Virus record (IMG/VR): IMGVR_UViG_3300045988_183673 | Direction: 5' to 3' (one strand) | DNA: 64,000 bases | Source of the DNA: a virus | Shown here: piece by piece, positions 1-60,639 of the stretch | How positions within the stretch are numbered: position 1 is the stretch's first letter | Layout of the letters: each line of letters starts with the position of its first letter | Position numbers and translations under genes: made by a program | Notes under the pieces: model-generated | What the model was told of the DNA's origin: nothing | The model's database searches: none | Seen by the model: the letters and a program-made list of their open reading frames with translations, nothing else

Positions 1-13
1 TACGAATACTCCA

Positions 14-89
14 TGGAGCTTCTGACAGGACTCGAACCTGCAACCTGCTGATTACAAATCAGCTGCACTGCCAATTGTGCTACGGAAGC
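14..89 (-). tRNA. tRNA-Thr (anticodon UGU)
   Basis: The reverse complement folds as a 76-nt cloverleaf. Acceptor GCTTCCG/CAGAAGC (one C-A mismatch), D-arm GCAC/GTGC, anticodon arm GCTGA-TTTGTAA-TCAGC (U33, anticodon TGT, A37), T-arm GCAGG-TTCGAGT-CCTGT, encoded 3' CCA. Confidence 0.8.
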
Positions 90-154
90 ATGATGGCAGT
101 AAGAATACTGCCGCTGTTATGGAAAAGGATAGGAGAAGCGTTTTGTAAACGCCT

Positions 155-229
155 TGGTGACCTGTACGGGAATCGAACCCATGTTACAGCCGTGAAAGGG
201 CCGTGTCTTGACCGCTTGACCAACAGGCC
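155..229 (-). tRNA. tRNA-Glu (anticodon UUC)
   Basis: The reverse complement reads GGCCTGT-TG-GTC..GAC-A-CGGCC-CTTTCAC-GGCTG-TAAC-ATGGG-TTCGATT-CCCGT-ACAGGTC-A-CCA. This is a 75-nt cloverleaf with a canonical T-loop and anticodon TTC. Confidence 0.8.
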
Positions 230-342
230 ATATAAAGACAGACTTTTTCCCGTCTGTCATGGGTGCATGCAGCCTTTTACACTGCACATGCCGTCTTGCT
301 GCACAAATGCAGCAGTTACGTTTGGAAGGCTTGCAAGGTGTT

Positions 343-370
343 GAGTAAAAATGCTCGGGCCTTAAACCGA
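343..370 (-). terminator. Intrinsic terminator-like hairpin (CTCGG-TTTAAGGC-CCGAG followed by CAUUUUUAC on the minus strand)
   Basis: Inverted repeat and T-run read directly from the sequence. It sits at the 3' end of the ORF-less transcribed segment downstream of the promoter at 498-526. Confidence 0.45.
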
Positions 371-490
371 GGGCGGGGACTCAACCCTTGATTTCTCGCA
401 GCATGAGGTTGTGAAAGGAAATTCCCCGCCTCTACACGACTCTCCTAACAGGAAGCGCGATAACAACAAGGGAAGCGTTCCTCATTGCTA
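371..490 (-). ncRNA. Candidate small structured RNA (no ORF with an RBS). Long-range stem AGAGGCGGGGA...TCCCCGCCCTC encloses about 45 nt. Transcribed from the 498-526 promoter toward the tRNA pair.
   Basis: Strong promoter, then about 120 nt of GC-rich inverted repeats, then a terminator hairpin. It does not fold as a tRNA cloverleaf. Only a 17-codon ORF without an SD is present. Confidence 0.3.
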
Positions 491-497
491 TACTTAT

Positions 498-526
498 ATT
501 ATACCATAAAATCATTAGGTAGTCAA
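498..526 (-). promoter_or_regulatory. Sigma-A-type promoter, TTGACT-17-TATAAT with extended -10 (TGGTATAAT)
   Basis: The minus strand reads TTGACTACCTAATGATTTTATGGTATAAT, with perfect hexamers and 17-bp spacing. Confidence 0.6.
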
Positions 527-938
527 TCATAAATTTTCGAAGATTAAATCTCTGTTTGGTTCGTCTCGCAAAGGGGCTCTGGCGGCAGACATATAATATA
601 CCCGCAAGCAAAAACAGCCGAAATGCACACTAACTTCAGGATATCGACTATGATACTTTCGTCAGAATACATCCTTTCGCTCTGCGTTATCCGCATAAGA
701 AATACTTCCAGATAAACAATCGATAACCAGAAGAATGTGGCACAAAAGAGCTTGATTTTGCGTTTGGTTATAAAATGGATACCGTCTTTATCATTTCGTT
801 TGATTGTTAATGGTTTTGTAGATACAACACTACATTTTCCTTGTTTGAGTAAGATTCTGGCAGTGAAAGCCAAGCACGGGAAAAGGTGTTTTCCATCCTT
901 TCCCACTACTCGGACCAAAAACTTGGCTTTCATGACGA

Positions 939-1622
939 TTACCCGTTGATAGCTTTCAGCACATCATCAGCAAGGAACCCGGAGGAATCGTCAACGTCAG
1001 TAGCATCATTCACTCCGAACGATGCAGCAAACTCATCCTTTACCGGAGCGCTCTTCTCGGCTGTTTTCTTCTTCACTACAGGCGTGGGCGCGATGAGTTC
1101 ATCGATTACGGAAGAGACATTGGACGCGTCAACGGGAGAAACTTCCTCTGCGGGGTTTGCGCCCAACGCAGGGAGATTATCCTCTTTAATGCTGGGAATG
1201 TATCCCGTCTTTACGGAACAGTCAATCTGTGCGCCCGTCTCCACCGCAATGGACTGGCAATGAATGTACTGTCCGCTCACGACACTGTCTTTTCGAACGA
1301 TGACCTTATCTCCATCGACGGAGCCACCAACAGTGCCATCGATGTCAACAACGCTGTCTGCGACAATGCTGCCGTTCACGCTGCCCTTGCTCATATACAC
1401 CATCTTGGCTTTGACATTGCCGTCGACATGAGCACCGTGCAGGACGAGCATACCGTCAATAACGACGTTACCCATGACAGTGCCGCGAATCTCGATGTTG
1501 CCACTGGACTCAAAATCGCCATTTAGTTTGGAATTCTCGCTGATGACATCCGAGACAGCATCTCGTGCATCAGCGGTTTCCTGAACAGTGCCATTAAACA
1601 TACTCTCAATATCCTGATTCAT
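939..1622 (-). CDS. Bactofilin-like protein (repetitive beta-helix G-x-V-x-G pattern) with an acidic/Pro-rich C-terminal tail
   Basis: The sequence IEIRGTVMGNVVIDGMLVLHGAHVDGNVKAKMVYMSKGSVNGSIVADSVVDIDGTVGGSVDGDKVIV matches the periodic bactofilin (DUF583) pattern. RBS AAGGAG 7 nt before the ATG at 1622. Confidence 0.5.
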   Translation of the reverse strand: MNQDIESMFNGTVQETADARDAVSDVISENSKLNGDFESSGNIEIRGTVMGNVVIDGMLVLHGAHVDGNVKAKMVYMSKGSVNGSIVADSVVDIDGTVGGSVDGDKVIVRKDSVVSGQYIHCQSIAVETGAQIDCSVKTGYIPSIKEDNLPALGANPAEEVSPVDASNVSSVIDELIAPTPVVKKKTAEKSAPVKDEFAASFGVNDATDVDDSSGFLADDVLKAING

Positions 1623-1648
1623 ACAAAATCTCCTTAACTATGTGTGTT

Positions 1649-2161
1649 TTAATTATTATACTCTTCGCTCGAAAGCTCTTCCATACCGTTTTGCCGCAGC
1701 TTTTCGTACTCAACAGGACTGATTTCCTGAATGTCGTACGCATCAAGCCCGGTATTTTCTTTATAGGTATTGAACAGTTCCGAACGAATCGTTTCCTTTA
1801 TCTGACGATTAACCAGCAATGGATTTTTGCCCAAGTTTACAGAAAACAGAGCATCCGTTCTAAAGTCGATTTGCATATCCTTTACGCTTAGAGCAACAAC
1901 CCTGTAATAAAGATTGTGCCAGCTATGGATTTCGCCGCCCTCGACAATTTTCATATCCAGATTTTGTTCGGGGACAAAATCGATGCTTTCCAGCGTGTAA
2001 TCGTCTCCCCATTTTTGCAGCAGCTCGTCCTTCAATGATTCAAGAAGCTGCTCCGCTTTTTCATCGGTCATCGCTTCCGGGTGATGGATGGTAATCGCCA
2101 TATTCTGTTTTACACGATTCCCATCCTTATCAAGAAGCCATGCCTGCACGTATAATTGCAT
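1649..2161 (-). CDS. Hypothetical protein (170 aa)
   Basis: RBS GGAGG 7 nt upstream of the ATG. A canonical promoter lies at 2189-2217 and an upstream terminator at 2221-2251. Confidence 0.6.
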   Translation of the reverse strand: MQLYVQAWLLDKDGNRVKQNMAITIHHPEAMTDEKAEQLLESLKDELLQKWGDDYTLESIDFVPEQNLDMKIVEGGEIHSWHNLYYRVVALSVKDMQIDFRTDALFSVNLGKNPLLVNRQIKETIRSELFNTYKENTGLDAYDIQEISPVEYEKLRQNGMEELSSEEYNN

Positions 2162-2188
2162 TTCATTCCTCCCTCATTCGTATATTCT

Positions 2189-2217
2189 TATTATACCACA
2201 AATAGAGTAAATAGTCA
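2189..2217 (-). promoter_or_regulatory. Sigma-A-type promoter, TTGACT-17-TATAAT (extended -10 TGGTATAAT)
   Basis: Minus strand TTGACTATTTACTCTATTTGTGGTATAAT. Confidence 0.65.
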
Positions 2218-2220
2218 AAC

Positions 2221-2251
2221 AAAAAAGGCCCACAGCGCAAAGCTGTGGGCC
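2221..2251 (-). terminator. Rho-independent terminator (GGCCCACAGC-gcaaa-GCTGTGGGCC plus T6 on the minus strand)
   Basis: Perfect 10-bp stem. The U-run follows on the minus strand immediately after the stop of the 2261..4207 gene. Confidence 0.75.
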
Positions 2252-2260
2252 AATTTATTT

Positions 2261-4207
2261 TTAGACCAGTTTGCGAATTACTTCGCGAACCTTATTGATG
2301 CCTTCTTCGTCTGCTGTTGCAGAAGGAATGATGGTCATCTCTGCAGATTCCATATAGCTGCCTGTAATCATGTAGCTGCTAATCCAATCCGCCAGCGTAC
2401 GCAGGTCGACTGAACCATCCGTCAGATACAAGGTCTTCAGGGTGTTCAGTACAGCGTGGTATGCTTTCAGAATCTGAGGAACCCTGACGCTCTTCGGGCA
2501 GCCAGTCATAGAACGCAAACGCTCTGCGAGAATGGTATCCTCGGGCGCATGGATGTCCATTTTAATCTGGAAACGAGACAAAACGGACTGGTTCATATCC
2601 CGGCAACCCTCATAGGAGATGTTTGTAGTAGCAATGATAACGGCATCGGGATGGCGGCGAATCGTTTCACCGGTAGGAAGGTTTACGGCGCTGGTAGAAT
2701 CCAGCAAACCATTCAAACCGACAAGAACACCGGGCTTTGCAATGACGGTGGGTTCCTGAATCTCGCAGACCCAACCATTACGAATGGCCTGAATCAGAGG
2801 AGACTCAACATAGTGGAACCCATTCGCGCCGGAATCCGCACCGCCTGCCGCTGCACGCTGAATAATTGCAGCAAGACAATCGGCTTCTGTCGCATCGCGT
2901 TTTTTCTTGCCAGTGATAGCCTTGTACGCCATTTCGGGGTCATTGGAAATGTCCGTTGCGGTAGGCAGAGCGTTCAAGTCCAAATCGCCATAGGCATTCT
3001 GATACTCGTCAATGCTCATAGGCGTCTCGTTCGGCTTATTGGGCATCATCTGGCCGAGCAGGTCATAGATTTCCGTATCGCTCGAACAGGTAACAAACAC
3101 ATAAGGCAAGCCGAGACCGAGAGCAATATCCTTTGCGGTTTCCGTTTTACCGGTACCGGCCTCACCGCGCAGCAGAATGTTGCGGATGGGACGAGGCGTC
3201 TTGGAACTCTTCTGGATATGTTTGCAAAGCGAATAGGCTTCTACGCCGGGAATGTGCGAATCAGGAACGATAAGCAGTGCCTTCTCCGTATCAGTCAAAA
3301 CGCGCTTCTTATTGAGAAGGAACGCTTTTTCCAAGTCTGCGGCAGTTTTAGGCTTCTCAGACTCGGGTTCCGGCTCAGAAACAGCCATATCCTTGCCACG
3401 ACTATCCTTGAAAGGAGAAATGTTGCCGATAAAGGCGGTGGGGGCGGCTGCATCCGTGGCAACCAGAGTATCGTACAGACCGCCAACACTGTTGACAGTA
3501 GGATTGGGAATCACTCTGGACTCCAATTTGGAGTTTGCAACCTTATCTCTCGTGCTCATGAAGTAGGCAATATCTGCCAGCTTACATGCGCATTTTTTTG
3601 CTGCATCCACGTCATTTTTATTCACACTGGGCGTACTGGCCTTTGCAATAATTCTCTTGTAAAAAACAAGAAGTTTATTAAAGGTGTCGTGAAATTCCTT
3701 ATCCTGCATGTAGTAACCCCACATACAAAACAGGAAAGGCTCGCTGTAAACTTTAAGCGTTTTCTGGACATCAGCAAGACTCTTCGCATTCCCTTTCTCA
3801 TCACCAAGAAAAAATTTATTCGAGGAGAATTTGTAGAGGATGGAGAGCCGTGTTCCGAAACCGATTTTCTGAGAGTTGTATGTCGAGGAAACGGTATAAG
3901 CAGCAACACAGGTCTGATTGTCGATATCAGCGGTATTGTTGTAGCCGTAACCGTCACCACACATAGGCCATGTATGAACCTGCAAAGCACGGTTCAACGC
4001 TTTAGCAAAACCTGCGGTCATCATACCAGAGTTCGTGGGCATCTTCTTGTTGCCATTCGAGTAGTACAAGGAGCGGCGTGCAATCGCCGCAGTCTCGTCG
4101 TTGAAGGAACCGTAGTTCCCGGTGTATAAATCGCGGTCATTCAGAAAATCCACAAGACCATTGATGGGCAAGGAAGTGTTTCTGTGAAAATGAAAAATGC
4201 AATCCAT
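2261..4207 (-). CDS. AAA+ ATPase (AAA_5/MoxR-GvpN-like C-terminal half) with an N-terminal domain of unknown function
   Basis: Walker A LLRGEAGTGKTETAKDIALGLGLPYVFVTCS, hhhhE Walker B-like GWVCEIQE, sensor DAVIIATTN. Confidence 0.65.
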   Translation of the reverse strand: MDCIFHFHRNTSLPINGLVDFLNDRDLYTGNYGSFNDETAAIARRSLYYSNGNKKMPTNSGMMTAGFAKALNRALQVHTWPMCGDGYGYNNTADIDNQTCVAAYTVSSTYNSQKIGFGTRLSILYKFSSNKFFLGDEKGNAKSLADVQKTLKVYSEPFLFCMWGYYMQDKEFHDTFNKLLVFYKRIIAKASTPSVNKNDVDAAKKCACKLADIAYFMSTRDKVANSKLESRVIPNPTVNSVGGLYDTLVATDAAAPTAFIGNISPFKDSRGKDMAVSEPEPESEKPKTAADLEKAFLLNKKRVLTDTEKALLIVPDSHIPGVEAYSLCKHIQKSSKTPRPIRNILLRGEAGTGKTETAKDIALGLGLPYVFVTCSSDTEIYDLLGQMMPNKPNETPMSIDEYQNAYGDLDLNALPTATDISNDPEMAYKAITGKKKRDATEADCLAAIIQRAAAGGADSGANGFHYVESPLIQAIRNGWVCEIQEPTVIAKPGVLVGLNGLLDSTSAVNLPTGETIRRHPDAVIIATTNISYEGCRDMNQSVLSRFQIKMDIHAPEDTILAERLRSMTGCPKSVRVPQILKAYHAVLNTLKTLYLTDGSVDLRTLADWISSYMITGSYMESAEMTIIPSATADEEGINKVREVIRKLV

Positions 4208-4323
4208 GTTTTATTCCTTTCTGTAAGTAAAGGTTCCGTTAGAAACCAAGAGCGGGGGTAGAGGATTTTATTCCCCTATCCCCGCAGTATTTAATTTACC
4301 GTGTTATTTTGATTGTGCCTTAC

Positions 4324-4950
4324 TTAGAACGGCAGGTCATCGCTGTCCTCCAGCAGTTCCATATCGTCGTTCATAGACGGGGCCTGGAATGCAGGCTGAG
4401 GAGCGGCGGCAGCATGACTGGGAGCAGCGGATGCGGCAGGTGCAGCACCGCCACCGACATTGTCGCGCAGAGCAATGGGGGTGTTCTCCTTCTTTGCCCA
4501 GCGAGAAATGTCCAGCGTAGAAACATAAACGGTCGGGTTGCGATACGTTTTACCGTCGCGACCGGTGGTTTCACGAATCTCAGACAGACCAGTCAGGGTG
4601 AGTTCGGTGCCGGAACGCAGCATACCCTTGCGAAGCATGTTCGCGTAACGAGTAGCGGCGCTGCCGGAAATCATCAGCGTGTAGAACAGGCCAGCGCCGT
4701 CTTCCTTGTCAGACAGACCGGCGTAATGAGCTGCCTTATCGGCATAGTCCGCCACCACAGGAATGGTGACAAACTCCTTGCCGCTCTTGTTCATGCCAAT
4801 ATAGGCCGTACCCTTCGGGTTCAGGCGTGCAATGGCACAAACAAAGCGAGAGTTGGGGTTCTTGTTCAGTCGGTCAGACAAATACTGAAGGCCCTTGCTG
4901 TCAATAGAAGACATGGGCATGTTGAAACGGGTATTATTAGTGTTATCCAT
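4324..4950 (-). CDS. ssb: Single-stranded DNA-binding protein
   Basis: OB-fold-like N-terminus, a Gly/Ala/Pro-rich linker, and the acidic C-terminal tail ...MELLEDSDDLPF typical of SSB. Start set at MDNTNN (RBS GGAG 6 nt upstream). The ORF track begins 19 codons earlier. Confidence 0.8.
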   Translation of the reverse strand: MDNTNNTRFNMPMSSIDSKGLQYLSDRLNKNPNSRFVCAIARLNPKGTAYIGMNKSGKEFVTIPVVADYADKAAHYAGLSDKEDGAGLFYTLMISGSAATRYANMLRKGMLRSGTELTLTGLSEIRETTGRDGKTYRNPTVYVSTLDISRWAKKENTPIALRDNVGGGAAPAASAAPSHAAAAPQPAFQAPSMNDDMELLEDSDDLPF

Positions 4951-5009
4951 AACGTACTCCTTTTTTAAATAAAAAATGTTTCTTGTACGATTAAGAGAAA
5001 AAGCCACTC

Positions 5010-5040
5010 CTTTAATGTTAATAAAAGAGTGACCACGCTT
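5010..5040 (-). terminator. Leader hairpin plus U-run (GTCACTC..GAGTGGC-TTTTTCTC) between the box at 5046-5090 and the ssb start
   Basis: Inverted repeat read from the sequence. Same relative position as the conserved leader hairpins elsewhere. Confidence 0.4.
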
Positions 5041-5045
5041 TTTAT

Positions 5046-5090
5046 TTATCGTACTACTAATATAGTATTAACTTTGCAGCAACTTGCAAT
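5046..5090 (-). promoter_or_regulatory. TTGCTGCAAAGT-box promoter-like element (copy 1 of 12), upstream of ssb
   Basis: Minus strand TTGCAAGTTGCTGCAAAGTTAATACTATATTAG. Conserved core TTGCTGCAAAGT, then TACTAT about 4 nt downstream. Confidence 0.45.
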
Positions 5091-5130
5091 ACCTTTGTAG
5101 CCACTACAGCTATTTTAATTGGGCATTTGC

Positions 5131-5294
5131 ATTTCAATCTAACGCAACCCGTGTGGGTTGCAACGCATCCCATCGTCCTCATTCTTGATTTTATTTCAAT
5201 CTAACGCAACCCGTGTGGGTTGCAACACGACCTTTTCAATCAGGTACAGATTATGATGCAATTTCAATCTAACGCAACCCACACGGGTTGCAAC
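5131..5294 (-). CRISPR. CRISPR-like mini-array A. Three 34-nt repeats (5131-5164, 5193-5226, 5261-5294); unique spacers of 28 and 34 nt.
   Basis: Minus-strand repeat GTTGCAACCC-ACAC-GGGTTGC-GTTAGATTGAAAT (7-bp stem, 4-nt loop, ...ATTGAAAT 3' end as in type I-C repeats). In repeat 3 the loop is inverted (GTGT vs ACAC). No cas genes in the window. Confidence 0.5.
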
Positions 5295-5460
5295 AGCAAA
5301 CTTGTACAAACGAAACAACAAGTTGTCGTGCATTTTGCACAATGTTTGTCTGCTTTTTGACCAAACAATATGGTCAGATACTACTTACTGCAATGGAATC
5401 ATATCCTTTCTTTATAATATTTGGTGCGAAGCAATCGGCAAAACTATGCTCACTTATCAT
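5295..5460 (-). repeat. Leader-like segment, copy 1 (about 165 nt, roughly 85% identical to 6200-6350). Contains a TTGC(C/T)G-16-TATTATAAAG promoter-like motif and short palindromes.
   Basis: Direct duplication seen by eye. Sits immediately on the 5' side of array A on the minus strand. The (+) ORFs 5288..5644 and 6193..6417 are artefacts of this duplication. Confidence 0.55.
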
Positions 5461-5476
5461 TCGCACCTGTAGCAAA

Positions 5477-5511
5477 CAAAAATACCGTCACCTCATAATG
5501 AGATGGCGGTA
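5477..5511 (-). terminator. Conserved accgccatctc-type hairpin plus U-run (copy)
   Basis: Minus strand ATACCGCCATCTC-attatgag-GTGACGGTAT-TTTTGTT. Downstream of the box at 5546-5590 and upstream of leader copy 1. Confidence 0.5.
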
Positions 5512-5545
5512 TGTTGATTTTGAATATTTGTTTGCTTTTATTTTT

Positions 5546-5590
5546 GGAATGTATTCAGTATACCTACTTTGCAGCAAATTGCAAGAGAAC
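5546..5590 (-). promoter_or_regulatory. TTGCTGCAAAGT-box (copy 2), pointing toward the leader of array A
   Basis: Minus strand TTGCTGCAAAGTAGGTATACTGAATAC. Confidence 0.45.
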
Positions 5591-5662
5591 GCCCCACAAG
5601 GGCTTATAATTTCGTTTTTTCTGGGGATACTATATCCATCTTAACTTGAGGAGTGGTTTTTT

Positions 5663-6019
5663 ATGGCTGATTTCCCTTATTTGACAAAAACGGAGAAGAT
5701 TGTCATGCGTATTTTTTGGCATGCCGATAAGCCATTGACTCAATTGGATGTAATGGAAATCGCCAGACAGCGCGGTGAAATGAAATGGAACCCGCATTAT
5801 ATCTTCCTTGTTTTGGACTCGTTGGAGAAAAAGGGTGTTTTAATTGAATCCGGACACACCCGTGTCGGGAAAGCGTATGCGCGATTGTTTGAACCAGTCA
5901 TAAGCCATGTTGAATATGTCGTCCTTTATGTTTTCGAAGTGCTCCACGACAATGAAATTGAGGAATTCCTTGCCGCATTTACTGCCAAAAAAGAGGAAAA
6001 AGAAAAGAGCCTGCATTAA
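5663..6019 (+). CDS. BlaI/MecI/CopY-family winged-helix transcriptional repressor (orphan, no BlaR1 partner in the window)
   Basis: EKIVMRIFWHADKPLTQLDVMEIARQRG...WNPHYIFLVLDSLEKKGVLIE matches the penicillinase-repressor fold signature. RBS GAGGAG 9 nt upstream of the ATG at 5663. A (+) terminator-like hairpin lies at 6008-6036. This is the only solid (+)-strand gene between 900 and 32,000. Confidence 0.7.
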   Translation: MADFPYLTKTEKIVMRIFWHADKPLTQLDVMEIARQRGEMKWNPHYIFLVLDSLEKKGVLIESGHTRVGKAYARLFEPVISHVEYVVLYVFEVLHDNEIEEFLAAFTAKKEEKEKSLH

Positions 6020-6028
6020 GCAGACTCT

Positions 6029-6199
6029 TTTTTGATTTAACGCAACCCATGCGGGCTGCAACCGCCAAAGTTTTACGCTGATTCGCTCACTGCACAATTT
6101 CAATCTAACACAACCCATAAGGGTTGCAACGGTTCATCTACGATGGCACACGCTGGGCCCCCGATATTTCAATCTAACACAACCCATGAGGGTTGCAAC
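6029..6199 (-). CRISPR. CRISPR-like mini-array B. Repeats at 6166-6199 and 6097-6130 plus a degenerate terminal repeat at about 6029-6062; spacers of 35 and 34 nt.
   Basis: Repeats read atttcaatctaacacaaccc-ataa/atga-gggttgcaac (+). They differ from array A by a stem SNP and the loop sequence. The terminal repeat has degenerated, as at the distal ends of CRISPR arrays. Confidence 0.45.
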
Positions 6200-6350
6200 A
6201 GCAAACTTGCACAAACAAAGCAACAAGTTGTTATGCATTTTGTACAATGCTTGTCTGTTTTTTGACTATGCACAATAGTCAAATATCATTTACTATAGCT
6301 ATATCATATCCTTTCTTTATAATACTTGGTACGAAGCGACCAGCAAATTG
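6200..6350 (-). repeat. Leader-like segment, copy 2 (paralogue of 5295-5460). Contains the perfect palindrome TTGACTAT-gcaca-ATAGTCAA.
   Basis: Aligned by eye to copy 1. The conserved blocks are caacagcaaacttg(t/c)acaaac..., gcattttg(c/t)acaatg, and catatcctttctttataata(t/c)ttggt(g/a)cgaagc. Confidence 0.55.
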
Positions 6351-6355
6351 CAATG

Positions 6356-6850
6356 TCATTTTCCAAAGAAACCAAGAACAATCCCATTCACAAAATCAAC
6401 CAGAGGCTTATTGCTAATCACGCCAAGCAGCATCAGCGCAAATACGATTGCACCTGCGATTAAAACAATACGAAGGATTATAAATATAGGAAGACAGATT
6501 CGCCAATAGTATCCGCGTATCAGCCACAACCCACCATAGTTGCTTTTCAATCTATTGCAACGTTGACATGAGGGCACAAGGTTCTTTATGGAGTTGACTC
6601 CCTCTTTGGGTAATAGTCTTCTTGCAAGCCAATTCTTCTTCGCCATATCAACAGATATGATATGGTCTACTTGCATTTTGTCTGTATGGATTCGCCGCCC
6701 ACAATATACGCAATGATAATAGTTTCCGGGTTCGGGCGGCCAGTGTCTTATGAATTCTGTTCTGTAGTTTGTTGAACGAGTATATTTATCAGGAACGCGC
6801 AAAAACATCTTGCATCCAGTGATAGTGCTTATTCTTTGTTTCAAAAACAA
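6356..6850 (-). CDS. HNH endonuclease with a C-terminal transmembrane segment
   Basis: YHCVYCGRRI...MQVDHIISV...NLVPSCQRCNRLK gives the CxxC/H-N-H/CxxC motif. Hydrophobic C-terminus. The start may be internal (MFLRV, 6808), since the ORF overlaps the upstream gene. Confidence 0.7.
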   Translation of the reverse strand: MFLKQRISTITGCKMFLRVPDKYTRSTNYRTEFIRHWPPEPGNYYHCVYCGRRIHTDKMQVDHIISVDMAKKNWLARRLLPKEGVNSIKNLVPSCQRCNRLKSNYGGLWLIRGYYWRICLPIFIILRIVLIAGAIVFALMLLGVISNKPLVDFVNGIVLGFFGK

Positions 6851-22937: not shown

Positions 22938-22953
22938 ATCGATTATGCCCTCC

Positions 22954-23301
22954 TCATTTACAAAGTGCGGTATCAATACTCTTCGTAATAATGACTGTCC
23001 ATTTGGGCGATGCGTTCTTGGCAATATCCACACCGTAGCTGATAAGTGCGCCGGGATTCAGCAAAGTGTCATCGGCGGCCGCCATAACATCATCAACATA
23101 GATAACAGCAGGCTTATCAGCCAACATCGCAAGAGAAAATGCAGCCATTCCGCTATCAGTTCCCTTTTCTTTTTCAATATGCCTTAACAACATACCCAAA
23201 AAAGAACCAGTGCCGAGAGACTTTCCCTTGACAGAGATATGAATAATCTCCGGCTGAACAGTCCCAAAATCACCATGCTGAATTGTAATATCTTTAAGCA
23301 T
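22954..23301 (-). CDS. Hypothetical protein (115 aa)
   Basis: RBS AAAGGAA 4 nt before the ATG. Confidence 0.5.
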   Translation of the reverse strand: MLKDITIQHGDFGTVQPEIIHISVKGKSLGTGSFLGMLLRHIEKEKGTDSGMAAFSLAMLADKPAVIYVDDVMAAADDTLLNPGALISYGVDIAKNASPKWTVIITKSIDTALCK

Positions 23302-23368
23302 TATATTCCTTTCTTATACTTTTTAATAAAAACCGCTCACCCGAAAAGGTAAGCGGTTGGGTTTTGAA

Positions 23369-24052
23369 TTATGCAAGCAAAGGATATATTTCTTTCTTTA
23401 CAGCTCTCATCAGTGCTGCAGCATGCGCTGCGTTTTGTGCATTTCCGGCACCGGCATGAGAAATCTTAGGATTGACATGCGTGATGAAATTCTTTTTGTA
23501 AGGAGAAGAAATTTTCTTTGCAGCATCGATAATCTTGTTTGTGTTTTCAGTGTTAATTTTTTGCTGAATACACAATTCTCGAAGTCGTGCGCAAAAAACT
23601 TCCTTACTTTTGCTATCAGTGATAGCAGAAATACTTTTCACCGTTTCCGGTGATTCTTTTTGTGCGGGTGCTGCATCACAAGTCATTCGACTAACACAAA
23701 ATCCATTTTCGCACATGGTCTGAATAAGCCCATCATATCCTTTATCTCCCGATACGATGATATAATGGCTTTTCTTCCCTGTTGTGCAAAGGCTTCCAAG
23801 CTTGGCCGCAATGTGAAAATCCATGCTGTTTTTTCCTGCATTGGAATTGCAGAACTCAACTTGGTTAGCTGGATATTTTGTCAGGAATACCTGCAACTCT
23901 TTGAGTGACATACAGGTGGCCTCTGGACCGAGAAAGATAATTAGTTTATCTCTTTTGGTCTTGAAATACACTGTCTTTACCCATTTTTTAGGGATATTCT
24001 CAGTGTCAATCAGCCAAACGGTTCGAGTGCAGCTCACACATTTCACCCCCAC
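23369..24052 (-). CDS. NYN/PIN-like (LabA-type) nuclease-domain protein
   Basis: VWLIDTENI...IIVSGDKGYDGLIQ matches the NYN-domain acidic-residue pattern. Start ambiguous (GTG at 24052 or ATG at 24040). Confidence 0.45.
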   Translation of the reverse strand: MGVKCVSCTRTVWLIDTENIPKKWVKTVYFKTKRDKLIIFLGPEATCMSLKELQVFLTKYPANQVEFCNSNAGKNSMDFHIAAKLGSLCTTGKKSHYIIVSGDKGYDGLIQTMCENGFCVSRMTCDAAPAQKESPETVKSISAITDSKSKEVFCARLRELCIQQKINTENTNKIIDAAKKISSPYKKNFITHVNPKISHAGAGNAQNAAHAAALMRAVKKEIYPLLA

Positions 24053-27345: not shown

Positions 27346-28509
27346 TTATTCAGCTGCGGCAGACCGCTCGTACACATCAATGCAGTAGTTGCCCATAATC
27401 TTGTTGTACATGCACTCCTGTGCCAAAGGACCTGCCCCATAGGTATCAACGGCGTTATCATAGTTACTGCCAATATAAGCTTTCACTTCATCGACAGACG
27501 GTTTATAGTCCTGTTCCTCTGCCAGATACTGCGCAACAAGGCTCAGTAAAACATTTTCTTCCGTCTGACTACGAAGACTTTCTGAATACTCCTCCGAGGT
27601 CTTATAATTGCTGTATGTCTGAACGAATGTCTCCAAGTCCATATTGTAGGCAGTTGCTTCGTTTTCGACATACTTCAAGTTGGTTTCAAGACTCAGGTTG
27701 ACAAGGTCTGTCGTATCCTTTTTGAGTTTTACATTGTCAATGAAATACTGTTCAATCTCATTCTGAATCTTATTCATACGAAGATTCTCTTCAACATATT
27801 CACGAAGCAGGTCTACTGTAGTTACAGCAGTGCCGTCTTGCAGCTTGTAGCCACTCATGATACCGGCAACATCAGCATCTGTCATGCTATATTGAGAAAT
27901 CTTATTAAGCGTTACATGGAAAACAGCTTCCTTGTTGGCGAGCTCGATAGTCTGCTCGCCTGTGGTTCTATCTGTTGTACTGCTATATCCATCAGGGAAT
28001 GTTACTGTGACGTCAAACGAATCCCCCGTGTTATGCCCGACGATTTGCTCTTCAAATCCGTCAATAAAGGTATTGGAACCGAGTTCCAAATCGTAGTCTT
28101 CTGTTGTTCCACCGGTAAAAGCAACACCATCAACCGTACCCTCATAGTCAATGTTCACAACATCGCCTTCCTGTGCGGCGCGGTCTGTTACCTCTGTCGT
28201 CAGCTTGTAATTGGACTGAAAATAATCCAACTCGCTTTGAATCTCCTCGTCTGTAACGACGTATACATCTTTGCTGACCGTATACTTCTTATAATCCTTG
28301 GGCATCTTTATGTATTTGGACGCAGTCACATCACGAAAATACCCGTCATCATCAAGACCGAGGTCATACTCAACAGCGGAAGCTGTTTCGGAGGTGGCTG
28401 TTTCCGCAGTCTCAGATGCACTTGTATCGGCCGTATCTTTACTGCACGCGGTCAATGCAATACATGCAGCACTGATGACCGCCAGAATCATTTTTGCGTT
28501 TTTCTTCAT
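27346..28509 (-). CDS. Lipoprotein with a trigger-factor-like FKBP-type PPIase domain (extracytoplasmic foldase, PrsA-analogue)
   Basis: Lipobox ALTAC-S after a signal peptide. GDVVNIDYEGTVDGVAFTGGTTEDYDLELGSNTFIDGFEEQIVG matches the trigger-factor PPIase core. Start set at MKKNAKM (RBS AAGGAG 6 nt upstream). Confidence 0.65.
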   Translation of the reverse strand: MKKNAKMILAVISAACIALTACSKDTADTSASETAETATSETASAVEYDLGLDDDGYFRDVTASKYIKMPKDYKKYTVSKDVYVVTDEEIQSELDYFQSNYKLTTEVTDRAAQEGDVVNIDYEGTVDGVAFTGGTTEDYDLELGSNTFIDGFEEQIVGHNTGDSFDVTVTFPDGYSSTTDRTTGEQTIELANKEAVFHVTLNKISQYSMTDADVAGIMSGYKLQDGTAVTTVDLLREYVEENLRMNKIQNEIEQYFIDNVKLKKDTTDLVNLSLETNLKYVENEATAYNMDLETFVQTYSNYKTSEEYSESLRSQTEENVLLSLVAQYLAEEQDYKPSVDEVKAYIGSNYDNAVDTYGAGPLAQECMYNKIMGNYCIDVYERSAAAE

Positions 28510-28565
28510 GAAAATCTCCTTTATAAAAATACCCCGGCAGACAGGTTGCCTACCGGGGCAGTATT

Positions 28566-28817
28566 TTAAACGAACAGGAACGGAACGTGAAGCAACAGAG
28601 CGTATGCCGCATCCATAATGCCAATAATAACGGCGGATACAGCACTCACAACAAGAACTGCTCCGGTTCGATGGAGCGTGTTGTGCATACTCGGCCAAGT
28701 CACATTTTTGGGTGCAACCAAATTGTGAAGCTTCTTAGGCGTGCTCTTGACGAAAGAAGGAATTGCCTTCACGAAATTCGCAATAGCCGTTCCTACCTTT
28801 TTCAGTTTATCTTTCAT
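28566..28817 (-). CDS. secE: SecE-like small membrane protein
   Basis: KNVTWPSMHNTLHRTGAVLVVSAVSAVIIGIMDAAYALL matches the SecE K-V-x-W-P motif plus a single TM. Start set at MKDKLKK (RBS GGAGG 6 nt upstream). Confidence 0.6.
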   Translation of the reverse strand: MKDKLKKVGTAIANFVKAIPSFVKSTPKKLHNLVAPKNVTWPSMHNTLHRTGAVLVVSAVSAVIIGIMDAAYALLLHVPFLFV

Positions 28818-29068
28818 GCCGCACCTCCTACTCCGGTTACTACGAACATGATGATTGCGATAACAAGCAGAATAGCTGTACATACAGCAACCAGTTTATT
28901 TGCGGACGTTTTCGTGCTGTCTTTAGCATTCGAGCGCATTGTATCACTGATTCCGGTGATAACACTAAGACTGTTCTTGTCGGCCTTATCCATGGAAAGC
29001 GTAACCGCACAAACCAGAACAGAAACCAACAGAATCAAGATGCACAGAATGATTTCATAAATTGCCAT
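28814..29068 (-). CDS. secG: SecG-like small membrane protein
   Basis: An 84-aa protein with N- and C-terminal TM helices (MAIYEIILCILILLVSVLVCAV...LVAVCTAILLVIAIIMFV) separated by a polar loop, as in SecG. Confidence 0.55.
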   Translation of the reverse strand: MAIYEIILCILILLVSVLVCAVTLSMDKADKNSLSVITGISDTMRSNAKDSTKTSANKLVAVCTAILLVIAIIMFVVTGVGGAA

Positions 29069-29083
29069 TGTGTTGCCCTCCCG

Positions 29084-30424
29084 TCAATTCAAGAAACCCT
29101 TGTGATGGCGAACCACCAAATGGCTGTTAAGAGAATCGATAACTTCAAGCGTAACACCTGTGACAATCAACAGACTGGTACCGCCAAAGTGCATGTTCAG
29201 ACCTGTAACCGCAGTTGCCAAGATAGGCACACATGCAATAACCGAAAGAACAAATGCTCCCGAACCGGCGAGAGAATGGCAAGCATTGCGCAAATAATCA
29301 CTGGTAGCTTTGCCTGCTCGAATACCGGGGATACTGCCGCCGTTCTTGCGCAGGTTGTTTGCCATTTCGATGGGGTCGAATGTGATGTCGATGTAGAATA
29401 AGTTGAATGCGAAAATCAGGGCTACATACGCAACATCATAAATCCAATTCCGCGAATTCCAAGATGCCAGCGCCATATACAGGCTGGGGTGCTTGTTGTA
29501 ATCGAGGAACATCGTCACGAGAGACGGCATACTGCAAATGGTGGACGAGAAAATAATAGGCATAACACCCGACATAATCAGTTTGATGGGGATATAACTG
29601 GACTGACCAGTGGATGCTTTGTTCCCCACATTTTTACCGGCATACTGAACAGGAACGCGGCGCTCTGCATCGCTTGCGAAAACGACATAGAAGGTGGCCG
29701 CCAAAACAAAGAGGATGACGCCGGGAATCATCAGATAATACCACCATCCATTTTCTTTGCCCATTGCAATAGAGTTCTGGAACAACGAGATGACAGCATC
29801 CCATCTGGAAATGATACCGGTAAAGATGATAAGGGAAATACCGTTGCCAATACCTTTTTCGTCAATCAGCCATCCAAGCCAGATGACGATTTGAGAACCA
29901 GCAGTCAGAATGGCAATAACAGTAATGGCTTCCACGACCTGCGAAATGCCGGAAGTGTATTTCATCGCACCGTAGTTCTTCATAATAAAGAAGTACCCGA
30001 TAGCTGTTACGACCGCCAAACCACAACCAACATACTGCGTGATTTTATTGATTTGCTTCTGCCCGCCGATGTCCTTGCTGATTTCTTCCAGTTTCGGAAT
30101 CGCAACAGTCAAAAGCTGGATGATGATGCTTGCGTTGATGTATGCAGATACGCCAATCGCAAATACCGCACACTGAGAAAGTGCGCCACCGGAAACCAGA
30201 TTGTAATAATCCAGTACAGAGGTGCTTCCGAACATAGTCTGAAGCGCAGCGGTGTTTACGAACGGAATCGTAATACCGCAACCCAGACGATAAATCAGAA
30301 GACAAAGGATGGTGAAGAGAATCTTGTTGCGAACATCATCCACCATCAGCTTCTGGAAGATGGTGCTGTTCGAATAAGACTTTTTGAGTTTCGGCTTTTT
30401 CGCCGGATTTTTAATGTTGTCCAA
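29084..30424 (-). CDS. secY: SecY-family protein translocase subunit (paralogous/accessory; not in the rplO-secY-adk context)
   Basis: VRNKILFTILCLLIYRLGCGITIPFVN (SecY N-terminus), ten hydrophobic segments, and the conserved SASIIIQLLT plug/TM2 region. TTG start with RBS GGAAGGAG. Confidence 0.85.
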   Translation of the reverse strand: MDNIKNPAKKPKLKKSYSNSTIFQKLMVDDVRNKILFTILCLLIYRLGCGITIPFVNTAALQTMFGSTSVLDYYNLVSGGALSQCAVFAIGVSAYINASIIIQLLTVAIPKLEEISKDIGGQKQINKITQYVGCGLAVVTAIGYFFIMKNYGAMKYTSGISQVVEAITVIAILTAGSQIVIWLGWLIDEKGIGNGISLIIFTGIISRWDAVISLFQNSIAMGKENGWWYYLMIPGVILFVLAATFYVVFASDAERRVPVQYAGKNVGNKASTGQSSYIPIKLIMSGVMPIIFSSTICSMPSLVTMFLDYNKHPSLYMALASWNSRNWIYDVAYVALIFAFNLFYIDITFDPIEMANNLRKNGGSIPGIRAGKATSDYLRNACHSLAGSGAFVLSVIACVPILATAVTGLNMHFGGTSLLIVTGVTLEVIDSLNSHLVVRHHKGFLN

Positions 30425-32179: not shown

Positions 32180-33490
32180 ATCGCACAAGTATTGAATGGC
32201 GAGCTGTGATATAATAAATCAAAAAACTTCTCAACGGCAAAAGGATAAAATGGGATGACATTTCAAAAGGGTGTAAAATTTAGAATCTACCCAAATCGGG
32301 AGCAGCGCAATCTGATTGACCGCACTCTCGGTTGCAGCAGACTCATTTACAATAAAGGTCTTGCCATGCGGGAGGACGCTTTCAAAAGCGGGGAAAAGTG
32401 CGGCTACAAGCAAACTTCTGCTATGCTGACAGCGCTCAAGCAGGATGCGAACTACGCGTTTCTCAAAGAGGTGGATTCCATTGCTTTGCAGCAAGCGCTG
32501 CGAAACCTTGATGCCGGATACACAAACTTTTTCGAGCATAGAGCTGCACATCCAAAATTCAAAAGCAAAAAAAGCGCCAAACAATCATACCGCACACTCA
32601 ATATTGATAACGGTATACGCATTTCTAATAAGCGCATTCACTTACCGAAAATCGGTTGGGTAAAAGTTCATCAGTCTATGGAGATTGGCGCAATTCACAA
32701 CGCAACAGTAGCACGCACAGCCACCGGTAAATATTTCGTAGTTCTTAATGTGGAATATGACCCTCAGCCTATGCCAAACAACGGTTGTGTAGTAGGCATT
32801 GATGTTGGACTCAAAGAATTCTATTCCGATAGTAACGGTACTGTGGTTAATAACCCCAAATACTTGGAGAAAAAAGCCAAAAAACTTGCTCGCGAACAGC
32901 GGCGTTTGGCTCGCAAACAGAAAGGCTCACATAATCGTGAAAAGCAGCGTATAAGAGTCGCTGCCGCCCACGAAAAGATTGCTAATCAACGAAACGATTT
33001 CCTTCAAAAACAGTCTACTATGCTGGTGCGTGAAAATCAAACCATCTGCATCGAAGACCTTAATGTAAAAGGAATGCTTCATAATCATAAGCTTGCAAGA
33101 GCTATTTCCAGTGTTTCGTGGTCGTCTTTCTTTAGCATGCTGGAGTACAAAGCCTATTGGTACGGTTGTACAGTAATTCGTGTACCTACATTCTATCCGA
33201 GCAGCCAAACATGCAGTTGCTGCGGCTATAAGAATGTGGCTGTCAAGAACCTCAGCATCCGTCAATGGGAATGTCCGTCTTGTCACACGGTTCACAACCG
33301 CGATAAAAACGCTGCCGTTAATATTTTGCATAAAGGGCTTGAGCAAAAGTCCGCTTGATAAATACATACCGTACCGTGGGACACACGGGAAGTAACGCCT
33401 GTCTGACATCGTGTAAGACGCAACAACCTCGGTTGCTGTGCAGTGGTGGTTGATGCAGGAATCCCCCTGCTTTAGCCGTGGAGAGAATGT
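32180..33490 (+). mobile_element. IS200/IS605-family TnpB-only element (IS1341-like). Boundaries approximate.
   Basis: A single (+)-strand tnpB interrupts a purely minus-strand region. The structured 3' flank (33359-33490) is a candidate omega-RNA/right end. Confidence 0.55.
32255..33358 (+). CDS. tnpB: TnpB (IS605 OrfB-family RNA-guided endonuclease-like transposase accessory protein)
   Basis: RuvC-like GIDVGLK near residue 180, IEDLNVKGM, and the C-terminal zinc finger CSCCGYK...CPSCH. 367 aa. Confidence 0.85.
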
Positions 33491-40600: not shown

Positions 40601-41560
40601 TTAAATTTCACCGCTCATGGTAAGCTTTGCACGAGCCATGATTTCATATCCTTTTGCATTTGCGGTTACATCCGTCAAGAAGAAAAGGTTCTTGGTGTCA
40701 ATGGCTCGCTCGATGCTTTCGCGCATCATAGCAGAACCACCGCCCATAAAGATGAAATAGGATGTTTTGAAGTCGTCCTTGATTTTTTCGGAAATCGTAC
40801 GAATCAATGCTGTTGCATAATTGTCTGCGGTTTCCTTGGCAATTTTCACGGCGTTTTCATCGACCAGCATGTTGTTGTTCCCTGCAAGGATTGCCTCAGC
40901 CATGTAGTCATCGACCGACAAGGAACAATGGACACGCAGCTCGCTCTCGACAGTGCTCAGGAGTTCAATGACTCCACGGTCATAGCTTTCGCAGAAAGAA
41001 AGGTCCGGAGCATAAGTGTTGCCACGACCAGAGAAACGAATCACATCCGTGGTATACCCGCCGATGTCTACGACATAAGAACGGGGATAGCGCTTGATTT
41101 CCTTCTGAATCTCGCTTGCTGCCGTAATAGAAAAGCCCTGAGGATAGACAAAGACATGCTTGACAGTAATCTCAAACGGGATATCTTTGTACATGAAATT
41201 GATGAGTTTCCCGCTTTTGCCGAAATACTCATCATACTTCGCTTTCAGGGACATATGCTGCGGGGGCAAGCCCATCGCGAGGCATACATCGTATTTGTAG
41301 AATTTCTGATTGGGATACTTCTTTATAAGGTTCTTTGCTACGGCAATCAGCGTCAGCAAAAAGTAAGTATCATCCTTCGTCTTATCCTGCTGATAAGGCG
41401 TGCGGCTGTCATTGAGAGAATAATACTTCCCCATATAGCACATCGTCTCTCCCTTGATAGCCGGTTCAGTCGTACCGTGACGAACAAGACCAGTGGGAAA
41501 CGGCTCACAGCCAGGCGTCTTCATTGCTTTGTTTCCGGTATCTACTCCAATAATCTCCAT
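40601..41560 (-). CDS. Actin-like ATPase (ParM/StbA/Alp family), candidate segregation protein
   Basis: N-terminus MEIIGVDTGNKAMKT (phosphate-1 loop), and later DIGGYTTD (phosphate-2 / DxGxxT). Start set at this M (RBS GGAGGA 6 nt upstream). The ORF track extends 100 codons upstream. Confidence 0.55.
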   Translation of the reverse strand: MEIIGVDTGNKAMKTPGCEPFPTGLVRHGTTEPAIKGETMCYMGKYYSLNDSRTPYQQDKTKDDTYFLLTLIAVAKNLIKKYPNQKFYKYDVCLAMGLPPQHMSLKAKYDEYFGKSGKLINFMYKDIPFEITVKHVFVYPQGFSITAASEIQKEIKRYPRSYVVDIGGYTTDVIRFSGRGNTYAPDLSFCESYDRGVIELLSTVESELRVHCSLSVDDYMAEAILAGNNNMLVDENAVKIAKETADNYATALIRTISEKIKDDFKTSYFIFMGGGSAMMRESIERAIDTKNLFFLTDVTANAKGYEIMARAKLTMSGEI

Positions 41561-41798
41561 AAAAAATCCTCCGAACGAGTCGCAATATAGTTGAAAGTAC
41601 GAATTTTGGGATACTCTGCGCGATAAAATATAAGTGTCTACCAGATAACAATGGGACTCACTGACTGATGTATAGCGGTTGTTAAAACGGAAAGAACAAC
41701 TAATATACAACTGCCTGTTGTTATCATGATACCACACATGCAGTTGTCCAGCAACGAACTTTTGTTCGCATAGACAACAAAAAAGAAAGGAGTTATTT

Positions 41799-42029
41799 AT
41801 GCCATCCACCTTTGATACCATGGTAGGAAAGCGAATCAAAAAGCAACGAATGGAAATCAATTACAGCCAAGAACAGTTGGCGGCAAGCACGAATTGTTCC
41901 TATCGCTGCATCCAAAAATGGGAGTCAGGAAAGACGATGCCGCGAGCACAAATGCTATGCAATTTAGCAAAAGCCTTACATGTTTCGTCTGACTGGCTGC
42001 TTGGTATTTCCAATGACAGGAACGGTTAA
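41799..42029 (+). CDS. XRE-family (Cro/CI-type) HTH transcriptional regulator
   Basis: GKRIKKQRMEINYSQEQLAASTNCSYRCIQKWESGKTMPRAQMLCNLAKALHVSSDWLLG is a canonical XRE HTH. RBS AAAGGAG upstream. Confidence 0.8.
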   Translation: MPSTFDTMVGKRIKKQRMEINYSQEQLAASTNCSYRCIQKWESGKTMPRAQMLCNLAKALHVSSDWLLGISNDRNG

Positions 42030-52204: not shown

Positions 52205-52272
52205 GAGTAACTTCTCCTTTTTCATGTGTGTTTGTTTGATGTGCATAAACAAGCTTCATGCACTATGCTTAT

Positions 52273-60333: not shown

Positions 60334-60639
60334 GTTAGTTGCCCTCCTAATAATGTGAGTGTTCTGTGGTTTTACCACAGCCGGATTTATATACACCCTT
60401 ACCTACTCCCTAGTGTGCAGCCTCGATTGTAGATAAGAAAGTATATCAAAACACAAGCAATCAAATCGCATATTTACAATATGCCACAAAAAGACAGAAA
60501 AGTCAATCAAAAATTTTGGCACAAAAATGCCACCCATGAACGCATTCTCATATTTCATATGGACATGGATGGTTGAAACATTAACGCAAAACCTGCTTGA
60601 CTATAGCTATTATTTGTTCTGAGAAATTTGATGCTGTAT

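Follow-up and report, generated by a model that had tools for sequence, protein, structure and literature searches.

Huge phages are known to encode most types of CRISPR systems, almost always without Cas1, Cas2 and Cas4, and Cas5d-type processing has been described for a type I-C variant among them (Al-Shayeb et al. 2020, PMC7162821). Here we examine two short arrays, A and B, which lie on either side of a BlaI-like repressor gene in a stretch of 64,000 nucleotides (nt) from the IMG/VR virus record IMGVR_UViG_3300045988_183673; the whole of this stretch is called the window below. An earlier note, made from the letters of the window alone, had singled them out as CRISPR-like. Our analysis indicates that these are very probably real CRISPR mini-arrays of a huge gut phage that has its own type I-C interference genes, and that they are aimed at related phages. 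Huge-phage CRISPR without an adaptation module and viral mini-arrays are both already established, so the locus is a good example and not a new kind. What sets it apart is that it has a true Cas3 and a repeat of 34 nt, that an array lies upstream of cas3, and that its mini-arrays are unusually numerous, dispersed, individually promoted and site-polymorphic.

Like the huge-phage (>200 kb) systems of PMC7162821, the system of the window and its relatives is phage-encoded, its arrays are compact and no Cas1, Cas2 or Cas4 was found near its operon. Unlike the type I-C variant of that study, in which a helicase replaces Cas3, it includes a bona fide Cas3, and it further departs from those systems in having unusually many dispersed arrays, each with its own leader, and an operon-adjacent array located upstream of cas3. 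With virus-borne mini-arrays (Medvedeva et al. 2019, PMC6858448; PMC11656645) it shares the low number of spacers (1-2), the targeting of close relatives and a mismatched allele in the carrier, and the logic matches that of PMC6858448, which is superinfection exclusion. Arrays of the latter type, however, depend wholly on host Cas proteins and host-identical repeats, whereas here the interference genes are phage-borne and no host genome with this repeat was found in GTDB. Canonical type I-C (Dvulg) systems have the same cas3-cas5c-cas8c-cas7c genes without cas6, the same protospacer adjacent motif (PAM) TTC, and repeats of the same form, GT(C/T)GC-stem-loop-stem-G...GATTGAAAT. They differ in that no cas4-cas1-cas2 was found here, that many tiny arrays take the place of a single long one, and that the array comes before cas3. 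The repeat is also longer, 34 nt against the canonical 32-33 nt; next to the 33-nt repeat GTCGCAACCCGTATGGGTTGCGTGGATTGAAAT of Cohnella fermenti, the stem of which is identical, it has one more nucleotide between stem and handle.

Two other groups of mobile-element systems are comparable. Plasmid type IV-A3 systems (bioRxiv 10.1101/2023.06.23.546257; PMC11656645) are likewise CRISPR systems of mobile elements that have no adaptation module, still gain spacers and take part in inter-element competition; they are, however, of a different type, with DinG and with action by repression, and adaptation in trans has been shown experimentally there, whereas we infer it here. RNA anti-CRISPRs (Racrs; Camara-Wilpert et al. 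2023, PMC10651486), with type I-C examples included, are phage-borne repeat units behind promoters, and the array family described below has 26 solitary repeats. The twin arrays are set apart from Racrs by genuine spacers with turnover, and no anti-CRISPR (acr) gene adjoins them in the window. Current understanding is not overturned by this locus, which appears to be a clean natural example of CRISPR warfare between huge human-gut phage strains, where near-identical genomes differ mainly in the rival alleles that are remembered and the sequences that carriers target are present in the carriers themselves as PAM or seed escape variants. The compact cas3-cas5c-cas8c-cas7c set with its 34-nt repeat may also be of interest to builders of type I-C tools.

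Repeats and leaders of arrays A and B

Read on the minus strand, the repeat is GTTGCAACCC-N4-GGGTTG(C/T)GTTAGATTGAAAT, 34 nt in length. All six copies reported in the earlier note were found where it had placed them. Five of them have 0-1 mismatch, and the sixth, at 6029-6062, had rightly been called degenerate, with 5 mismatches. Dinucleotide shuffles of the window gave an expectation of 0.00 repeat matches. The parts of the two arrays are as follows.

5131..5294, minus strand: CRISPR mini-array A, with repeats R1 at 5261-5294 (leader side), R2 at 5193-5226 and R3 at 5131-5164 (terminal)
5227-5260 and 5165-5192, minus strand: spacers A1 (34 nt) and A2 (28 nt) of array A
5295..5460, minus strand: leader A, with a promoter-like -35 TTGCCG at 5441-5436 and -10 TATTAT at 5419-5414, 16-nt gap
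6029..6199, minus strand: CRISPR mini-array B, with repeats R1 at 6166-6199, R2 at 6097-6130 and R3 at 6029-6062 (degenerate, terminal)
6131-6165 and 6063-6096, minus strand: spacers B1 (35 nt) and B2 (34 nt) of array B
6200..6350, minus strand: leader B, with -35 TTGCTG at 6346-6341 and -10 TATTAT at 6324-6319, 16-nt gap, read directly from the sequence

Spacers of 28-35 nt had been anticipated, and the measured lengths are 34, 28, 35 and 34 nt. A 7-bp stem with a 4-nt loop, also anticipated, is the predicted fold for every copy (-11.1 to -12.6 kcal/mol, z -2.6 to -3.5). The loops do differ between copies as was claimed, although the loops listed at the time were those of the plus strand; for array A the loops on the RNA strand read ACAC, ACAC and GTGT, for array B GCAT, TTAT and TCAT. 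Part of the repeat, GTTGCAAC, equals its own reverse complement. The architecture of a 5' GTYGC, a hairpin and a 3' ...GATTGAAAT handle fits the type I-C form but in a repeat of 34 nt. The type I-C style that had been recognised in it has support, and in relatives an array with this repeat precedes a type I-C cas operon. Rfam in E-value mode on 5000-6400 returned no CRISPR-DR family. Within the wider array family, stem variants mostly keep pairing via G-U wobble, and a sister lineage (50%-identical Cas7c) has a repeat with the compensatory stem change GCATCCC/GGGATGC; these wobble-compatible and compensatory changes support the suggestion that the stem is under structural selection.

The duplication of the leaders was also confirmed: with the first repeat included, 5261-5442 and 6166-6347 align over 182 nt at 81% identity, and the promoter-like TTGC(C/T)G-16-TATTAT is present in both. 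A common leader of ~200 nt was found in 128 of 156 arrays of the family, the repeat-proximal 100 nt being >90% conserved, and the last ~100 nt of leader A belong to this common leader. Leader B begins directly after the stop codon of an open reading frame (ORF) for an HNH protein. Putative transcription of the minus strand from the leader promoters, as the note had it, is supported by the promoter-like sites. A hairpin-less look-alike of the repeat (GTTGCAATAGATTGAAAA... on the minus strand) was also seen at window 6525-6561, inside the HNH ORF 6356-6850 (minus strand), and it may be a repeat relic or a chance resemblance.

Spacer turnover and cas genes in related contigs

IMG/VR has the 3' 20-mer of the repeat at 23 loci, on contigs that reach 346 kb, and in human-gut metagenomes it occurs at no fewer than 120 loci, the contigs there being of 234-303 kb. 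Several loci from both sources are 97-99% identical to the window across many kb. Because these near-identical loci come from huge gut or viral contigs, the window is taken to be a piece of a huge human-gut phage-like element, and the idea that the arrays are borne on a mobile element holds, the relatives being huge phage-like contigs of 227-354 kb. The label 'phage' rests on the IMG/VR listing and several strong PHROG matches; no capsid or terminase genes were found in the parts of the element examined, and a megablast of window 1-25000 against INPHARED phages gave no match.

The related loci, 1.07 Mb in sum, yielded 176 arrays of this repeat. They have 1-7 repeats and spacers mostly of 33-37 nt, the commonest length being 35 nt; 26 of the 176 are solitary repeats with a leader, and short spacers are frequent at the terminal position, where 22 have 25 nt. 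Terminal repeats have on average 2.34 mismatches, compared to 0.53 for first repeats (150 arrays). At the array A site, ~98%-identical genomes have differing sets of one to three spacers, and the relatives read F19 F33, F19, F60 F23, F15 F23 or F69 F70 (F numbers denote spacers); loci L018 and L004 have the trailer spacer in common there and differ at the leader end. At the array B site the relatives have F2 F8 (9 contigs), or F43, F44, F54, or F36 F37 F38. When arrays were grouped by their downstream flank, the trailer spacers were constant and the leader-end spacers varied at many sites, with some internal losses, as in the group F62 F39 F14 F10 F40 F6 / F30 F14 F10 F6 / F92 F14 F10 F6. Constant trailer spacers together with variable leader-end spacers indicate polarised CRISPR acquisition, with gain at the leader end.

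For 32 of the 115 unique spacers, protospacers were identified elsewhere among the loci of the phage family. Their 5' flank is TTC in 16 of ~24 real matches, against ~1.6% expected by chance. TTC is the established type I-C PAM, and its place 5' of the protospacers, on the strand that matches the spacer, confirms the orientation of the arrays. Several spacers hit an Ig-domain structural gene; among the other targets are a DnaC/IstB-like gene, the BlaI-like gene and a phage tRNA-Tyr. In the relatives, sp31, a spacer found in other phages, matches the BlaI-like gene at 2-4 mismatches, next to a TTC PAM. The carriers' own copies of the targets are escape alleles. For example, the 346-kb phage has a perfect protospacer of F10 with TTC, and in the allele of a carrier itself there are 2 mismatches and ATC stands in place of TTC. 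Similarly, the 3' end of the phage tRNA-Tyr gene, beside a TTC PAM, is copied in a spacer that is fixed in 11 contigs, and the carrier's own tRNA-Tyr has 5-6 differences from the matching spacer, compensatory T-stem changes among them. One 25-nt spacer is a cut-down version of a 34-nt one, the protospacer of the latter having a TTC PAM. As a separate observation, carriers of the tRNA-Tyr spacer have a six-tRNA cluster beside the array (arrays in L003, L005, L008 and L013; L013 7724-7758 and L078 10686-10720).

No type I or adaptation cas genes were found in the 64-kb window, where the padloc Cas-model matches were to TnpB/IS605 OrfB only, and the first padloc scans of IMG/VR loci returned only TnpB/IS605 OrfB and helicases. 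The earlier statement that there are no cas genes is therefore correct for the window but not for the lineage, relatives of which have cas3-cas5c-cas8c-cas7c. Padloc on the ORFs of the metagenome loci identified Cas3c (4e-181), Cas8c (2e-72) and Cas7c (2e-46). The gene order in locus L030 is leader, two-repeat array, cas3, cas5c, cas8c and cas7c, and PDB searches with this locus gave a type I-C Cas3 (5e-79) and a Dvulg-subtype Cas5. The type I-C signature set, cas8c (Csd1), cas7c (Csd2), cas5c (Cas5d) and cas3 without cas6, is present in L030 and L151-L154. With its left flank, L030 matches a section of the 346-kb phage contig at 98% identity, and this contig holds both the twin arrays (L009) and part of cas3 beside another array (L017). 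Likewise, a 243-kb contig has twin arrays and part of cas3, in L079 and L041, and in these two relatives the partial cas3 and its array are 120-140 kb away from the twin arrays. A protein look-up found Cas7c on 191 contigs of up to 378 kb, and the Pfam order cas3, cas5d, csd1, cas7 was seen in four contigs that range from 62 to 354 kb, three being of 227-354 kb, in all of which an array of 4-5 repeats lies directly 5' of cas3. The earlier note had tied the choice between CRISPR arrays and iterons, the repeated protein-binding sites of a replication origin, to a cas locus with this repeat in the host or in relatives; such a locus in the relatives speaks for CRISPR arrays.

Two side observations concern the surroundings of the operon. 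In L151-L154, tRNA-repair genes (CCA-adding enzyme, Thg1, RlaP and metallophosphatase) precede it at 1-4452, and in the sister lineage an AcrVA2-like gene is located directly upstream of cas3 (L155 2801-3742).

Proposed mechanism and alternatives

In the mechanism we propose, each array would be its own minus-strand transcription unit, made up of a leader promoter, a ~120-nt leader, repeat-spacer-repeat-spacer-repeat and a terminator. The precursor CRISPR RNA (pre-crRNA) is predicted to fold into the 7-bp/4-nt repeat hairpins and would be cleaved by the phage's own Cas5c, after which the crRNAs would be loaded into a phage Cas5c-Cas8c-Cas7c Cascade. Judging from the known mechanism of the family, this complex and the phage Cas3 would destroy DNA that has a matching protospacer beside a 5'-TTC PAM. 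The targets would mostly be closely related huge phages co-infecting the same host, leading to the exclusion of rival strains. New spacers would be inserted at the leader end, with integration most likely in trans by a host type I-C adaptation module. Adaptation is probably in trans because no cas1, cas2 or cas4 lies near the operon; the phage lineage would thus supply interference itself, with adaptation encoded far away or, more likely, provided by the host. The earlier note had assumed that the whole type I-C machinery is borrowed from a host. This assumption does not fit relatives with interference genes of their own, and only adaptation may be borrowed. A question posed by the locus is how spacers are still gained at the leader end on a phage for which no cas1, cas2 or cas4 was found.

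Several observations weigh against this interpretation. The four spacers of the window have no protospacer in the 1.07 Mb of related loci, and the spacer search of phage databases that had been recommended brought no target to light: a concatenate of the 115 family spacers, the window's included, had no match in INPHARED, and exact 24-mers of the window's four spacers in IMG/VR matched carrier arrays only. A relaxed local search gave a weak 23/34 match for B2 alone and no partial promoter target, and spacer A2 is just 28 nt long. The cas operon of the window's own genome is presumed from 97-98%-identical relatives, and Cas5c processing is assumed, given a repeat of 34 nt in comparison to the canonical type I-C length of 32-33 nt. 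Furthermore, cas1, cas2 and cas4 were not found within 10 kb of the operon in the four contigs nor in the sister lineage, no adaptation genes are among the strong padloc matches near the arrays, and two L030 ORFs of Cas1/Cas4 size downstream of cas7c have no PDB match. Finally, the exact repeat 20-mer has 0 matches among 185,579 GTDB species genomes, so that the search for a host genome with the same repeat, also suggested in the note, yielded none.

The absence of cas genes from the 64-kb window, and of adaptation genes from the phage operon itself, would suit orphan mini-arrays on an element without Cas proteins, whose crRNAs are processed and used wholly by a host type I-C system; this is also the classical situation for virus-borne mini-arrays (PMC6858448, PMC11656645). 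We consider this unlikely, since 97-98%-identical relatives have the same twin arrays as well as part of cas3 beside another array, and a full type I-C interference operon follows an array with this repeat in related contigs of 227-354 kb. In addition, no bacterial genome with this repeat was found in GTDB, and among the matches listed for the at least 120 metagenome loci there are arrays of 1-7 repeats only and no long host-type array. Another set of possibilities is that the repeats are Racr-like decoys or crRNA-like regulators that titrate or redirect host Cas proteins, or that spacers which are short (28 nt in A2, for instance) or match in part repress genes with no cleavage. The solitary repeats with a leader (26/176) and the short terminal spacers (25 nt in 22 cases) are what such functions might look like, type I-C Racrs have been documented (PMC10651486), crRNA-like regulators of phages are likewise on record (bioRxiv 10.1101/2024.10.29.618823), and the AcrVA2-like gene of the sister lineage is beside the operon. 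Even taken jointly, these variants are in our assessment very improbable, because the twin arrays have full-length 34-35-nt spacers that turn over, and family spacers match TTC-flanked protospacers of rival phages. The truncated 25-nt spacer with its TTC-PAM protospacer, the lack of a partial promoter target for the window's spacers and the intact-looking Cas3 encoded by the phage also argue against them.

The earlier note had itself raised the option that the repeats are iterons of a replication origin next to ssb, or operators (here, sites for the BlaI-like repressor), and the repeats are indeed clustered, partly palindromic and located on both sides of a gene for a DNA-binding protein. We rejected this option, which now has hardly any probability, on the basis of spacer turnover, protospacers with TTC PAM, degenerate terminal repeats and pairing-preserving stem changes. 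The inter-repeat sequences are hypervariable among 98%-identical genomes, such spacers elsewhere in the family come from other phages with a TTC PAM, and the same repeat occurs at 13 scattered sites in one genome and beside the cas operon. Neither a rep nor an ssb gene adjoins the arrays, the replication genes (DnaD-like, DnaC-like, RecD2 and ParB) being located away from them, and the supposed ssb context was not upheld, as ORF 4324-5007 (minus strand), the neighbour of array A, has no Pfam, PHROG or PDB match.

A search of GTDB for the stem plus the handle, under relaxed matching, gave Cohnella fermenti as its sole match. This lead was rejected because the genes checked beside its arrays are not type I-C but sugar-use genes and a type III-Dv-like effector. 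The arrays in question (NZ_SSOB01000001.1, 408-454 kb, L145-L150) have ~100 repeats of GTCGCAACCCGTATGGGTTGCGTGGATTGAAAT with a near-identical stem, and genes like type III-Dv fused Cas7-Cas5-Cas11 and multi-RAMP effectors are found near them.

Dispersed modules, promoter cassettes and neighbouring genes

The arrangement of a repressor between two arrays, which had been regarded as a special design, loses this standing, because the twin arrays are 2 of at least 13 dispersed modules per genome. In the 346-kb relative, 30 repeats make up 13 arrays, which occupy 13 sites and lie for the most part on one strand. The sites are polymorphic. At 52234/52248, 13 bp of the window correspond in eight relatives to a 306-bp module, inserted in a 5' untranslated region and flanked by a duplicated 28-nt target sequence, and 1.1 kb of the window at 22939-24040 is replaced in three relatives by a 393-bp module with two repeats. 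Array B has an array-A-like leader in two relatives, and this leader swap indicates recombination between arrays. The features around the twin arrays are listed here.

5489..5584, minus strand: upstream phage cassette, with promoter-like TTGCAATTTGCTGCAAAG-N4-TATACT (5584->5557), ~45 nt and a terminator-like hairpin (5505->5489)
5002..5089, minus strand: second promoter-plus-hairpin cassette, downstream of array A and preceding gene 4324-4959 (minus strand)
5663..6019, plus strand: BlaI/MecI/CopY-family winged-helix repressor gene, 118 aa (Pfam Penicillinase_R E=8.7e-7, PHROG 1077)
6003..6031: two-way terminator-like hairpin, which the BlaI-like gene (at its 3' end) and array B (in its trailer) have in common

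The promoter-hairpin cassette accompanies many array modules and also stands before ordinary genes. Many modules, including array A and the cas3-adjacent array, sit just 3' of it, and in L151 the same cassette is 5' of the cas3-adjacent array. Its minus-strand motif, TTGC(A/C)WNTTGCTGCAAAG-N3-4-TATACT/TATAAT, has 11 matches in the window, with 0.4 expected; the plus-strand starts are 5072, 5567, 11365, 12581, 15725, 19934, 22112, 24777, 26337, 50680 and 60661. After ~45 nt, at least 5 of the copies continue with a near-identical terminator-like hairpin, ...ATACCGCYATCTC-loop-GAGRTGGCGGTATTTTT, just 5' of the ribosome-binding site of the next gene. The cassette may be an antitermination or attenuation leader, or a family of small RNAs. 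A 19-nt core of the 5002..5089 cassette duplicates 5566-5584, so that array module A is bracketed by direct copies of the motif.

The empty site at 52234/52248, the target duplication, the leader swap and this 19-nt bracketing motif led us to a tentative and rather doubtful idea, namely that the leader-array units are duplicative, semi-mobile cassettes, which would form a distributed immune memory of twelve or more mini-arrays, each transcribed by itself, and refreshed by host adaptation in trans, with BlaI-like paralogues as possible regulators. Just as tentatively, the preferred landing sites of such units would be 5' untranslated regions just downstream of the promoter-hairpin cassette.

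The assignment of the gene at 5663..6019 to the BlaI/MecI family in the earlier note agrees with the Pfam and PHROG matches. The gene is convergent with array B, towards the trailer end; by tblastn (15 hits, with the window counted) 14 relative loci have it at 95-100% identity, and in all 14 it is kept together with the flanking arrays. A 34%-identical paralogue converges on the trailer of another array (L014 5768-6070 and L036 6451-6753), and a truncated BlaI-like gene, of which part of the 3' end remains, abuts an array trailer at L014 8687-8808. Such paralogues and remnants beside arrays suggest either co-duplication of arrays with the gene or a functional link; their placement hints at the latter, and segmental duplication alone may account for it. 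The gene probably just lies between two of many dispersed array modules, with a regulatory link being possible, in which the leader palindromes and the TTGCAANTTGCTGCAA motif are candidate binding sites of the protein. No acr gene was recognised near the twin arrays in the window in the Pfam, PHROG and padloc results.

Outside the array region, the window encodes two tRNAs, a SecY homologue, an FKBP-domain protein, a ParM/Alp-like ATPase, a flotillin-like protein, HNH and non-specific nucleases, very large surface-type proteins and one TnpB. Two of these features are located as follows.

14-229, minus strand: tRNA-Thr(TGT) and tRNA-Glu(TTC), at the edge of the window
32255-33358, plus strand: TnpB / IS605 OrfB with HTH_OrfB, OrfB_IS605 and TNB domains, which scores in padloc as Cas12f or V-U

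Rfam at the gathering threshold found the two tRNAs and nothing else in the whole window. Diverged TnpB copies are present in related loci, and TnpB is not associated with the type I-C repeats. The SecY homologue (E=7e-87), FKBP-domain protein, ParM/Alp-like actin and flotillin/SPFH protein (27346-30424, 40601-41860 and 47616-49151, minus strand) are cargo that is unusual in a virus. The window also encodes two giant proteins that look like surface or adhesin types: the first, with MBG-domain repeats, has 2671 aa (52381-60396, minus strand) and the second, with DUF11/DUF7507 repeats, 1052 aa (60761-63919, minus strand).

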